Virus record (IMG/VR): IMGVR_UViG_2684622618_000028
Source: a virus
Lineage: Duplodnaviria > Heunggongvirae > Uroviricota > Caudoviricetes
Strand: one strand, 5' to 3'
Length of the DNA: 4,895 bases
A program made the position numbers and the translations under genes. Positions 1,372 to 3,498 of this stretch are shown here, one piece after another (positions within the stretch are counted from its first letter, which is position 1; every line of letters begins with the position of its first letter). The notes under the pieces were generated by a model. That model worked only from the letters and a program-made list of their open reading frames with translations, was not told the origin of the DNA and did no database searches.

Positions 1372-1410
1372 TCACCTTCATGGTGGTTAGTGCGTCCTGC
1401 TGATGTGCTT

Positions 1411-1473
1411 AGTATCACCGCTAGTGGTATTTGTGTCAACACCGCCAGAGATAATTTATCACCGCAGATGGTT
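1411..1473 (-). promoter_or_regulatory. pL promoter with operators OL1 (1413-1429), OL2 (1437-1453), OL3 (1457-1473)
   Basis: Three 17-bp lambda-type operator sites: TATCACCGCTAGTGGTA, CAACACCGCCAGAGATA, TATCACCGCAGATGGTT. On the minus strand -35 TTGACA (1434-1439) and -10 GATACT (1411-1416) are separated by 17 bp. OL1 differs by one base from the lambda OL1 I recall (CCAGTGG). Confidence 0.85.
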
Positions 1474-1554
1474 ATCTGTATGTTTTTTATATAGATTTAT
1501 TTTTTGCAGGGTTGTGTGGCTTGGGAGGTGATCGAGAGATCAGAATTGCGTTGT

Positions 1555-1944
1555 TTAGTGAGTTGCACCTATTAATTTTAAAATAAATACAATTGGTGTT
1601 TTTCGAGTTTTTCTTAACTCTTCATGCAGCTCCGTTCTCAGAATATATGATTTTTCGAGTTTGAAATTCTTGCGACCAGGCGTCTTATTGCCAGGCTCAG
1701 GAAGTGGAAGGCGTGTTTGAATGTCGAGTGGTGGACAGTCATAGAAGTAAATTCTATAAAGCTCAAGCGGTTCCCTACGTTCTTGTGATTGACGTTTTCC
1801 ATTAAGATGGGAAAGAACCATTGACCATATTACTTTCATTATGCATTGCGCAGTCAGTTCATGCTCGGCGAAGTGTTTACGATGCGTAGCATGAACACGC
1901 TGCATGAAAAAACCCGCATCAATTAAAATTGCTGCTTTCTTCAT
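1555..1944 (-). CDS. hypothetical protein (129 aa) in the rexA/rexB position of the immunity region; candidate exclusion/defence gene
   Basis: Uninterrupted 129-codon ORF co-oriented with and immediately downstream of cI (127-bp spacer), within an AT-rich ~450-bp segment with no similarity to the lambda rexAB sequence I recall. No family recognised by eye; only a weak GGGA-type RBS. Its last ~15 codons run into sequence homologous to the lambda OL-proximal non-coding region. Confidence 0.55.
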   Translation of the reverse strand: MKKAAILIDAGFFMQRVHATHRKHFAEHELTAQCIMKVIWSMVLSHLNGKRQSQERREPLELYRIYFYDCPPLDIQTRLPLPEPGNKTPGRKNFKLEKSYILRTELHEELRKTRKTPIVFILKLIGATH

Positions 1945-2071
1945 AAGAGTCCCAAAAAAATAGCCCAGAGCCGTTATGCAGATATTAACAATTGTCTGCG
2001 AACGGGGCTGGGCTTGGTTTAATTAATCTATGCCAAGTTGACTGTGCCGTCAACATAAAACTTACTTCCTA

Positions 2072-2785
2072 TCACCCAAACGTCTCTTCAGGCCACTGAC
2101 TAGCGATAACTTTCCCCACAACGGAACAACTCTCATTGCATGGGATCATTGGGTATTGTGGGTTTAGTGGCTGTAGAAACACCTGACCGCTATCCCTGAT
2201 CAGTTTCTTGAAGGTAAACTCATCACCACCAAGTCTGGCTATACAGAAATCGCCTGGCTCAACAGCCTGCTCAGGGTCAACCAGAATTAACATCCCGTCA
2301 GGAAAGCTGGGCTTGGATCCTGTTGGTGCGGTCATGGAATTACCTTCAACCTCAAGCCAGAATGCAGAGCCACTGGCTTTTTTGGTTGTGCTTACCCATT
2401 TCTCCGCATCGCCTTTGGTAAAGGTTCTAAGCTCAGGCGAGAACATCCCGGCCTGAACATGAGAAAAAACAGGGTACTCATACTCACTTCTAAGTGACGG
2501 CTGCATACTAACCGCTTCATACATCTCGTAGATTTCTCTGGCGATTGAAGGGCTAAATTCTTCAACGCTAACGTTGAGAATTTTTGCAAGCAATGCGGCG
2601 TTATAAGCATTTAATGCATTGATGCCATTAAATAAAGCACCAACGCCTGACTGCCCCATCCCCATCTTGTCTGCGACAGATTCCTGGGATAAGCCAAGTT
2701 CATTTTTCTTTTTTTCATAAATAGCTTTAAGGCGACGTGCGTCCTCAAGCTGCTCTTGTGTTAATGGTTTCTTTTTTGCGCTCAT
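2072..2785 (-). CDS. cI: lambda-type CI repressor (237 aa)
   Basis: Translation is near-identical to lambda cI over its whole length. HTH region [21 protein letters not shown], Ala-Gly autocleavage site in HVQAGMF, and the Ser (EGNSMTAP) and Lys (FTFKKLIRD) of the LexA-like peptidase domain are all present. The Ala at the cI857 position (LLAKIL) is wild-type. A few substitutions relative to my memory of lambda cI need alignment to confirm. Confidence 0.97.
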
Positions 2786-2795
2786 ACGTTAAATC

Positions 2796-2861
2796 TATCA
2801 CCGCAAGGGATAAATATCTAACACCGCGCGTGTTGACTACTTTACCTCTGGCGGTGATAAT
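2796..2861. promoter_or_regulatory. OR3 (2796-2812), OR2 (2819-2835), OR1 (2843-2859) with divergent pRM and pR promoters
   Basis: TATCACCGCAAGGGATA, TAACACCGCGCGTGTTG, TACCTCTGGCGGTGATA. pR -35 TTGACT (2833-2838) and -10 GATAAT (2856-2861) with 17-bp spacer. OR2 central base differs from the lambda sequence I recall (CCGTGCG). Confidence 0.9.
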
Positions 2862-2885
2862 GGTTGCATGTACTAAGGAGGTTGT

Positions 2886-3086
2886 ATGGAACAACGCATA
2901 ACCCTGAAAGATTATGCAATGCGCTTTGGGCAAACCAAGACAGCTAAAGATCTCGGCGTATATCAAAGCGCGATCAACAAGGCCATTCATGCAGGCCGAA
3001 AGATTTTTTTAACTATAAACGCTGATGGAAGCGTTTATGCGGAAGAGGTAAAGCCCTTCCCGAGTAACAAAAAAACAACAGCATAA
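2886..3086 (+). CDS. cro: Cro repressor (66 aa)
   Basis: [69 protein letters not shown] matches lambda Cro; strong SD TAAGGAGG 6 bp upstream of the ATG. Confidence 0.97.
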
Positions 3087-3093
3087 ATAACCC

Positions 3094-3125
3094 CGCTCTT
3101 ACACATTCCAGCCCTGAAAAAGGGC
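3094..3125 (+). promoter_or_regulatory. nutR: nutR (boxA CGCTCTTA 3094-3101; boxB GCCCTGAAAAAGGGC 3111-3125)
   Basis: Canonical boxA and boxB hairpin read directly, in the expected place between cro and cII. Confidence 0.8.
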
Positions 3126-3184
3126 ATCCAATTAAACCACACCTATGGTGTATGCATTTATTTGCATACATTCAATCAATTGTT

Positions 3185-3230
3185 ATCTAAGGAAATACTT
3201 ACATATGGTTCGTGCAAACAAACGCAACGA
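3185..3230 (-). promoter_or_regulatory. pRE region with CII-binding TTGC-N6-TTGC repeat overlapping the cII start
   Basis: Minus-strand TTGCGTTTGTTTGC (plus 3214-3227) is the direct-repeat CII recognition element flanking a -35 position. Placement relative to the cII ATG is as in lambda. The -10 position is not pinned down. Confidence 0.55.
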
Positions 3231-3498
3231 GGCTCTACGAATCGAGAGTGCGTTGCTTAACAAAATCGCAATGCTTGGAACTGAGAAGACAGCGGAAGCT
3301 GTGGGAGTTGATAAGTCGCAGATCAGCAGGTGGAAGAGAGACTGGATTCCAAAGTTCTCAATGCTGCTTGCTGTTCTTGAATGGGGGGTCGTTGACGACG
3401 ACATGGCTCGATTGGCGCGACAAGTTGCTGCGATTCTCACCAATAAAAAACGCCCGGCGGCAACCGAGCGTTCTGAACAAATCCAGATGGAGTTCTGA
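3205..3498 (+). CDS. cII: transcriptional activator CII (97 aa)
   Basis: MVRANKRNEALRIESALLNKIAMLGTEKTAEAVGVDKSQISRWKRDWIPKFSMLLAVLEWGVVDDDMARLARQVAAILTNKKRPAATERSEQIQMEF matches lambda CII. The ORF-track start at 3145 is an upstream in-frame extension; the true start is the ATG at 3205, preceded by AAGGAAA. Confidence 0.97.
   Translation: MVRANKRNEALRIESALLNKIAMLGTEKTAEAVGVDKSQISRWKRDWIPKFSMLLAVLEWGVVDDDMARLARQVAAILTNKKRPAATERSEQIQMEF

Follow-up and report, generated by a model that had tools for sequence, protein, structure and literature searches.

The stretch of DNA analysed here, 4,895 nucleotides (nt) from IMG/VR virus record IMGVR_UViG_2684622618_000028 (hereafter the window), belongs to Sp1, also called CP-933H, a defective lambdoid prophage at the thrW locus of Escherichia coli O157:H7. 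Its central region is, with a probability that we put at roughly 0.85, the immunity module of this prophage, still working as a lambda-type switch. That the switch is intact was claimed by an original prediction made from the letters alone; the observation is correct and was already known, as publications from 2001-2009 had described Sp1/CP-933H as a lambdoid prophage that is degraded but has its repressor and Cro intact.

In direct comparison, positions 1-4185 and 4236-4895 of the window are 100% identical to the chromosome of strain Sakai (NC_002695.2, from 299869), where the matching stretch is annotated as 'prophage Sp1, lambda-like phage', and positions 1100-3600 are 100% identical to strain EDL933, where the element is named CP-933H. 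The two names denote the same element, from which the window does not differ in sequence (Hayashi and Perna genomes; PMC2669165). Many O157:H7 chromosomes match the window at 100% identity in a megablast search of complete E. coli genomes, and only a subset of O157 strains has been reported to carry Sp1. The gene order is proA-thrW-Sp1-Sp2, in which Sp2 is P4-like and Sp1 stands directly after the tRNA-Thr gene thrW. The 3' part of thrW (145-191) forms a 47-bp attachment (att) repeat, a second copy of which lies at the far end of Sp1 in Sakai and in strain 9000. The genes over the window are numbered ECs0271-0280 in Sakai and Z0307-Z0316 in EDL933. The run of 50 N at 4186-4235 does not mark a gap in assembly of the genome: it stands in place of 266 bp from the 3' part of the O gene, ordinary sequence that Sakai, EDL933 and strain 9000 all have and that was taken from Sakai for the analysis.

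The lambda-type switch of Sp1

Sequence comparison and Pfam searches agree with the prediction that the three regulatory genes of the switch are of full length:

2072-2785, minus strand: cI (ECs0274/Z0309), 237 amino acids (aa), Pfam HTH_3 and Peptidase_S24
2886-3086, plus strand: cro (ECs0275), DNA identical to lambda, Pfam Cro
3205-3498, plus strand: cII (ECs0276/Z0310), protein identical to lambda, Pfam Phage_CII

The CI protein differs from that of lambda by four aa, and the cI gene differs by no nucleotide from that of ev099; this lambda-like phage has been sequenced, and its annotation gives N, O and P as full length. The autocleavage site Ala111-Gly112 and the residues of the Ser/Lys dyad, Ser149 and Lys192, are all in place, as had been claimed, and the Peptidase_S24 match has an E value of 9.8e-29; judged by its sequence, CI is a member of the S24 family of self-cleaving (LexA/CI) repressors. 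The same protein accessions for CI, Cro and CII recur in EC31, a near-complete lambda-like prophage with a frameshifted N and a split gene for an NYN-domain protein. Lambda-type cI-cro-cII sets are found in 451 of 5426 complete E. coli genomes, which indicates that phages of lambda immunity are common.

The lambda control elements were mapped by exact or near-exact motif search and by alignment with lambda and ev099, and a consensus scan independently recovered pR, pL, the oop promoter pO and the oop terminator:

1341-1355, minus strand: boxB of nutL, exact
1364-1371, minus strand: boxA of nutL, reading TGCTCTTA, the same variant as in ev099
1404-1473, minus strand: pL region (promoter scan and motif mapping), with +1 at 1404, -10 at 1411-1416 and -35 at 1434-1439
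1413-1429, in the pL region: operator OL1, one change from lambda, common to ev099
1437-1453, in the pL region: operator OL2, exact lambda
1457-1473, in the pL region: operator OL3, exact lambda
2783-2868: OR region (promoter scan and motif mapping)
2783-2797, minus strand: pRM from -10 to +1, exact core, with -35 at 2815-2820
2796-2812: operator OR3, exact lambda
2819-2835: operator OR2, one change, the central T to C at 2827
2833-2838, 2856-2861 and about 2868: -35, -10 and +1 of pR
2843-2859: operator OR1, exact lambda
3094-3125, plus strand: nutR, with boxA at 3094-3101 and boxB at 3111-3125, both exact
3214-3227, minus strand: CII-binding repeats of pRE, exact
3442-3520, minus strand: oop RNA (3520 to 3442), exact, with its terminator at 3474-3447
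3528-3556, minus strand: pO (3556-3528), from the promoter scan

Thus, the six operators, pL, pR, pRM, pRE, nutL, nutR and oop that had been reported are all present. OL and OR each comprise three 17-bp operators at lambda spacing that overlap pL, pR and pRM, and four of the six operators are exact while OL1 and OR2 are one base off. The pL spacer also has one change relative to lambda; since this change and that in OL1 are both present in ev099, they can be regarded as natural variants. The span of 1404-3498 proposed for the module fits in that it runs from the start of pL to the stop codon of cII, but nutL and the oop promoter fall just outside it.

Comparison with the immunity-region records of wild phages (mEp332, HK244, HK544 and CL707, GenBank EF120455-EF120459, plus ev099) places Sp1 among familiar relatives. 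Lambda and the wild lambda-immunity phages share with it the order N-nutL-pL/OL-(moron)-cI-OR-cro-nutR-cII-oop-O, their operators are identical to those of Sp1 or one base off, and Cro and CII of Sp1 equal those of lambda while its CI equals that of ev099. By the sequences of its CI, Cro and operators the Sp1 switch falls into the lambda immunity group (imm-lambda). The phages ev099 and 2B8 resemble Sp1 in having a gene for an NYN-domain protein instead of rexAB. Unlike the wild phages, Sp1 has broken N, O and P genes and a truncated NYN gene, has lost the terminator tIMM, and has T-to-C changes at the centre of OR2 and in the OR2-OR1 spacer that set it apart from all 36 phage records.

Expression and response to DNA damage

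Published work on Sakai and EDL933 bears out the claim of a working switch that DNA damage can open. In Sakai, Sp1 was scored as positive for repressor and antirepressor (Cro), defective for integration and replication, devoid of excision, and devoid of the remaining functions (Table 1 of Asadulghani et al., 2009; PMC2669165). Many of the early genes that remain in Sp1 were clearly induced by mitomycin C without its DNA being amplified, an induction the biological significance of which the authors call unknown, and neither circularisation nor excision, replication or packaging of Sp1 took place (PMC2669165), in keeping with the prediction that the element cannot replicate.

Strand-specific RNA sequencing of EDL933 under 11 conditions, one of which was treatment with trimethoprim-sulfamethoxazole (TMP-SMX), provides a more detailed picture (Landstorfer et al., 2014). 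The repressor gene is expressed in all 11 conditions, cattle faeces included, at 164-2646 reads per kilobase per million (RPKM). Values in LB and with TMP-SMX, together with the log2 fold change (log2FC), are as follows:

cI (Z0309): LB 552 RPKM, TMP-SMX 228 RPKM, log2FC 0.5
NYN remnant (Z0308): LB 125 RPKM, TMP-SMX 42 RPKM, log2FC 0.4
cII (Z0310): LB 8 RPKM, TMP-SMX 465 RPKM, log2FC 7.7
O fragment (Z0311): LB 6 RPKM, TMP-SMX 297 RPKM, log2FC 7.5
O fragment (Z0312): LB 1 RPKM, TMP-SMX 108 RPKM, log2FC 8.1
P' (Z0313): LB 6 RPKM, TMP-SMX 162 RPKM, log2FC 6.7
tail-fibre gene (Z0314): LB 5 RPKM, TMP-SMX 92 RPKM, log2FC 6.0
tail-fibre gene (Z0316): LB 12 RPKM, TMP-SMX 123 RPKM, log2FC 5.3
int' (Z0307): LB 21 RPKM, TMP-SMX 487 RPKM, log2FC 6.4

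The genes on the pL and pR sides are near-silent until TMP-SMX is given and then rise with log2FC of 5.3-8.1, that is 40- to 270-fold. This is the pattern predicted for a pL/pR pair that is repressed by CI and derepressed by damage, with cleavage of CI as the presumed intermediate step. The genes of the tail-fibre cassette rise 40- to 64-fold, which shows that pR transcripts pass tR1 without N and reach the cassette. In a further O157 data set, from strain PA20, the high drug dose altered eight of 14 Sp1 genes by a factor of 3 or more, with no excision.

The near-identity to lambda suggests how the switch may operate. CI would be made constitutively from pRM and would shut pR and pL through OR and OL; upon DNA damage, activated RecA would lead CI to cleave itself at Ala111-Gly112, and both early promoters would then fire, an induction of transcripts that the published data do show. 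On the left, transcription covers only nutL, a 37-aa stub of N and a truncated integrase gene; on the right, it runs through cro, cII and the remnants of O and P into the tail-fibre cassette, which a deletion has placed behind P. As N, O, P, xis and the late genes are missing or broken, replication, excision and lysis would not follow, and in Sakai they do not.

Several points weigh against this interpretation. The induction of Sp1 by drugs could in principle be indirect, and the header of the PA20 table is ambiguous as to the direction of change. The literature searched held no report of lambda immunity in O157. Two bases of OR, the OR2 centre at 2827 and the spacer position 2840 (T to C in both cases), differ from lambda in a manner that none of the 36 phage records carrying the region displays. 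Finally, loss of tIMM may allow transcripts from pRM to run into pL and int', and some of the int' signal at the basal level could come from such read-through.

Two other systems offer useful comparisons. Laboratory N- O- P- defective lysogens of lambda served to define the immune and 'anti-immune' states. They have the same effective genotype as Sp1, cI+ cro+ cII+ with neither antitermination nor replication, so that the transcription state can switch without cell death; unlike them, Sp1 is a natural element with a wild-type CI that is not temperature-sensitive. In the same O157 strain, the cryptic prophage CP-933P (Sp12; paaR2-paaA2-parE2, ydaS/ydaT) has likewise kept an active CI/Cro/CII-like switch, which is bistable and for which the authors propose a resistance to rearrangement (Jurenas et al., 2021; PMC8630535). 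The regulators of CP-933P and Sp1 are unrelated in sequence, however, and a toxin-antitoxin pair in the CP-933P operon confers addiction whereas Sp1 has none.

Decay around the module and variation in OR

The genes flanking the switch are in a very different state, and the statement that N, O, P and int are all truncated or frameshifted stands for each of the four. The remaining features of the window are:

115-190, plus strand: tRNA-Thr(CGT) thrW (ARAGORN)
205-1125, minus strand: int' (intD pseudogene, ECs0271/Z0307), whole catalytic domain, lacking about 80 N-terminal residues
1123-1183, minus strand: N', 20 codons from the start of lambda N, running on into 17 foreign codons, with a stop at 1070-1072
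1555-1944, minus strand: 129-aa open reading frame (ORF; ECs0273/Z0308), remnant of the NYN gene, 119 native codons plus a new tail of 10 codons
1596-1598: deletion joint, 577 bp lost in comparison with ev099 (from alignments to ev099 and lambda)
3531-4235, plus strand: O' pseudogene (ECs0277), frameshifted by a 23-bp duplication at 3923-3945 and otherwise open
4234-4545, plus strand: P', 21 codons of lambda P (homology to 4297) continuing in frame into the 3'-terminal part of a tail/baseplate gene
4545-4895, plus strand: start of a tail-fibre gene (ECs0280/Z0314) of a Pin-invertible cassette, from the annotation

An Rfam scan of the window matched the tRNA and nothing else. The 61 nt of N' are identical to lambda N, and the part retained is the arginine-rich boxB-binding motif. 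In int', the PF00589 domain spans residues 121-292 and the match to a PHROG integrase profile begins at position 81; RefSeq annotates the gene as 'missing N-terminus', and its ORF extends to 1179 through out-of-frame N sequence. This type of integrase is present in 1272 genomes of many lineages. The deletion joint behind pL leaves two overlapping frames on the minus strand, 1070-1183 and 205-1179. The former encodes a 37-aa peptide bearing the boxB-binding motif of N, and the latter, starting at an out-of-frame ATG 4 nt downstream of the N' start, a 324-aa ORF with the entire integrase catalytic domain; the leftward transcript that the drug induces covers the two of them.

The tandem duplication in O' copies an ori iteron, thereby giving five iterons. 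In O157 strain 272, O is unduplicated and annotated as intact, its protein sharing an accession with O from a lambda-like prophage, and at least part of the decay of Sp1 must therefore be very recent. The substitutions in O at 4033, 4123, 4174 and 4180 were considered as decay following inactivation and rejected, since they also occur in strain 272 with its intact O; they are synonymous natural variation. Downstream of P', the tail-fibre cassette is now under pR. Its invertible segment lies in opposite orientations in Sakai and strain 9000 (4830-7647 and 20075-22892 of the respective extracted loci), indicating that the Pin invertase has been active.

The 129-aa ORF had been proposed as a neighbouring gene under control of the switch. 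It is not intact cargo but a truncated NYN gene, and its expression, at 125 RPKM in LB and with a log2FC of 0.4 with antibiotics, follows the pattern of the cI operon. In ev099, the space between OL and cI holds a 285-aa NYN-domain protein in the position of rexAB. The remnant matches positions 1-108 of the 246 of phrog_5783 and has no Pfam match, the NYN match of the full protein (aa 158-205) being in the deleted part; PADLOC returned nothing for the remnant and weak NYN/HEC-09 hints for the full-length protein. A promoter-like site on the minus strand at 2025-2053 (TTGACG, 17 nt, TAGATT), between the cI stop codon and the start of the remnant, may give this moron a promoter of its own, as pLit does for rexB in lambda.

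The 577-bp deletion took tIMM and the last 166 codons of the NYN gene. Many other O157 strains, 9000, SS17 and 272 among them, have the insertion sequence (IS) IS629/IS1203 at this joint, which in strain 9000 reads AATTGG[IS]AGGCTGTTTTT, with the IS in the opposite orientation in SS17 and strain 272. The IS copies lie at 15597-16906 of extracted locus L001 and at about 401-1709 of L007, with slightly different flanks. As the alleles with an IS retain 3-7 more ancestral bases of the NYN gene than Sakai, insertion of the IS came first, and the deletion is IS-associated. The IS-free allele of Sakai and EDL933 then looks like the scar of a later excision, with which the IS-excision enhancer known in O157 is consistent.

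Within the Sp1 lineage, substitutions are confined to OR. Between 1594 and 4393, the only ones that separate Sakai, SS17 and strain 272 fall at 2839 and 2840, a pair of bases that directly follows the pR -35 hexamer (pR -29/-28, in the OR2-OR1 spacer). The OR2-centre change at 2827 is common to these three strains and occurs in no phage record and no other genome. The lineage substitutions at 2827, 2839 and 2840 thus fall within 14 bp of OR, and about 3 kb around them is invariant. The haplotypes at these three positions are distributed as follows:

C,A,C: Sakai, EDL933, strain 9000 (146 records)
C,G,C: SS17, TW14359, EC4115 (51 genomes)
C,G,T: strain 272 (1 genome)
C,A,T: none (0)
T,A,T: lambda, ev099, EC31 (167 records)
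T,G,T: STEC719, an otherwise lambda-like prophage (1 genome)

Over 198 genomes, the haplotypes at 2839/2840 are GT, GC and AC, and the lambda state AT is absent from the Sp1 lineage. Starting from a T,A,T ancestor, these alleles would require at least three events at two adjacent bases, in addition to the change at 2827. STEC719 was rejected as the ancestor of the segment from OR to O because it is lambda-like at all other variable sites, and its A-to-G change at 2839 consequently arose independently. The cluster could reflect a mutational hotspot or selection on the behaviour of pR and pRM. That selection is at work and the switch under active re-tuning in O157, with the host adjusting the set-point of a domesticated SOS-responsive regulator, is a doubtful proposition. 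The clustered substitutions in OR may be a new detail. PMC2669165 mentions neither operator variants and polymorphism in OR nor the deletion across the NYN gene and tIMM or the history of IS629.

Why the module persists

The original prediction read the contrast between intact switch and decayed genes as selective retention of the repressor module. No positive evidence for such retention was found: the coding sequences have not diverged from ev099 and EC31, O is intact in strain 272, Sp1 is reported in a subset of strains only, and some five events account for the entire remnant. These were two large deletions, the IS629-associated 577-bp deletion, the 23-bp duplication, and gain or loss of an IS, all in a young clone. 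Since divergence from ev099 and EC31 no coding change has accrued, the existing changes lying in OR; there has thus been no time for neutral decay, and a test of the dN/dS type would have no power. The intactness of the module is most simply explained by history, and we lean toward history together with past addiction. Loss of cI at a time when kil, replication or lysis genes were still present would have killed the cell, so that survivors of deletion would be biased toward keeping the repressor. A present-day benefit, such as immunity to the common phages of lambda immunity, is possible.

It is quite conceivable, at somewhat less than even odds, that the switch is a neutral relic, intact as a small target in a very young clone, of no benefit to the host and bound to decay. 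The cI DNA of ev099 and the CI, Cro and CII accessions of EC31, being the same as those of Sp1, leave nothing for selection to have acted on, and both the intact O of strain 272, a sign of recent decay, and the reported restriction of Sp1 to some O157 strains agree with this account. The module makes up 2.1 kb of a 10.6-kb remnant, and about one in five such modules would survive random deletion, a rough estimate that assumes a parent of the size of lambda, and its survival is thus unremarkable. The two large deletions nevertheless end close to the module, 221 bp to the left of the pL start and about 1 kb to the right of cII, and substitutions found in OR alone do not resemble uniform neutral decay. 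Strong expression of cI in every condition, cattle faeces included, also speaks against a mere relic, as does the number of genomes with lambda-type cI-cro-cII (451 of 5426), given which immunity could be useful. A more tentative explanation is that cI has been kept because its loss derepresses something harmful, formerly kil, N, replication and lysis, and now cII, cro and perhaps the tail-fibre cassette or int'. Opening of the switch raises the derepressed genes 40- to 270-fold, ectopic expression of cII from an Stx2 prophage slowed the growth of O157 in a study that also states that induction of CII can be toxic, and a comparable 'addictive' immunity region exists in the cryptic CP-933P of the same strain (PMC8630535). 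The Sp1 module encodes no toxin, however, lambda CII is by textbook knowledge short-lived owing to FtsH, Cro would itself turn down pR and pL after derepression, and no cI knockout has been reported.

It is improbable that the host or its co-resident prophages use the switch as a DNA-damage controller. Candidate targets would be the tail-fibre cassette, with fibres made for co-induced defective prophages, neighbouring elements on which int' might act, or host genes regulated by Cro and CII. The tail-fibre genes and int' are indeed wired to pR and pL and induced, the Pin-invertible segment is found in opposite orientations in Sakai and strain 9000, the OR changes are clustered and lineage-specific, and O157 prophages are known to complement one another (PMC2669165). 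Against this, the authors who reported the induction call its significance unknown (PMC2669165), int' has no arm-binding part and Sp1 does not excise, and no target of Cro or CII outside Sp1 has been shown, the growth study having used the cII of an Stx2 prophage and not that of Sp1.

History plus past addiction thus remains the explanation toward which we lean. The four natural promoter/operator alleles of OR provide a cheap experimental handle on the switch. In a dead prophage, such a switch may provide O157 with lambda-type immunity, keep the leftover genes repressed, or drive the tail-fibre cassette for other prophages.

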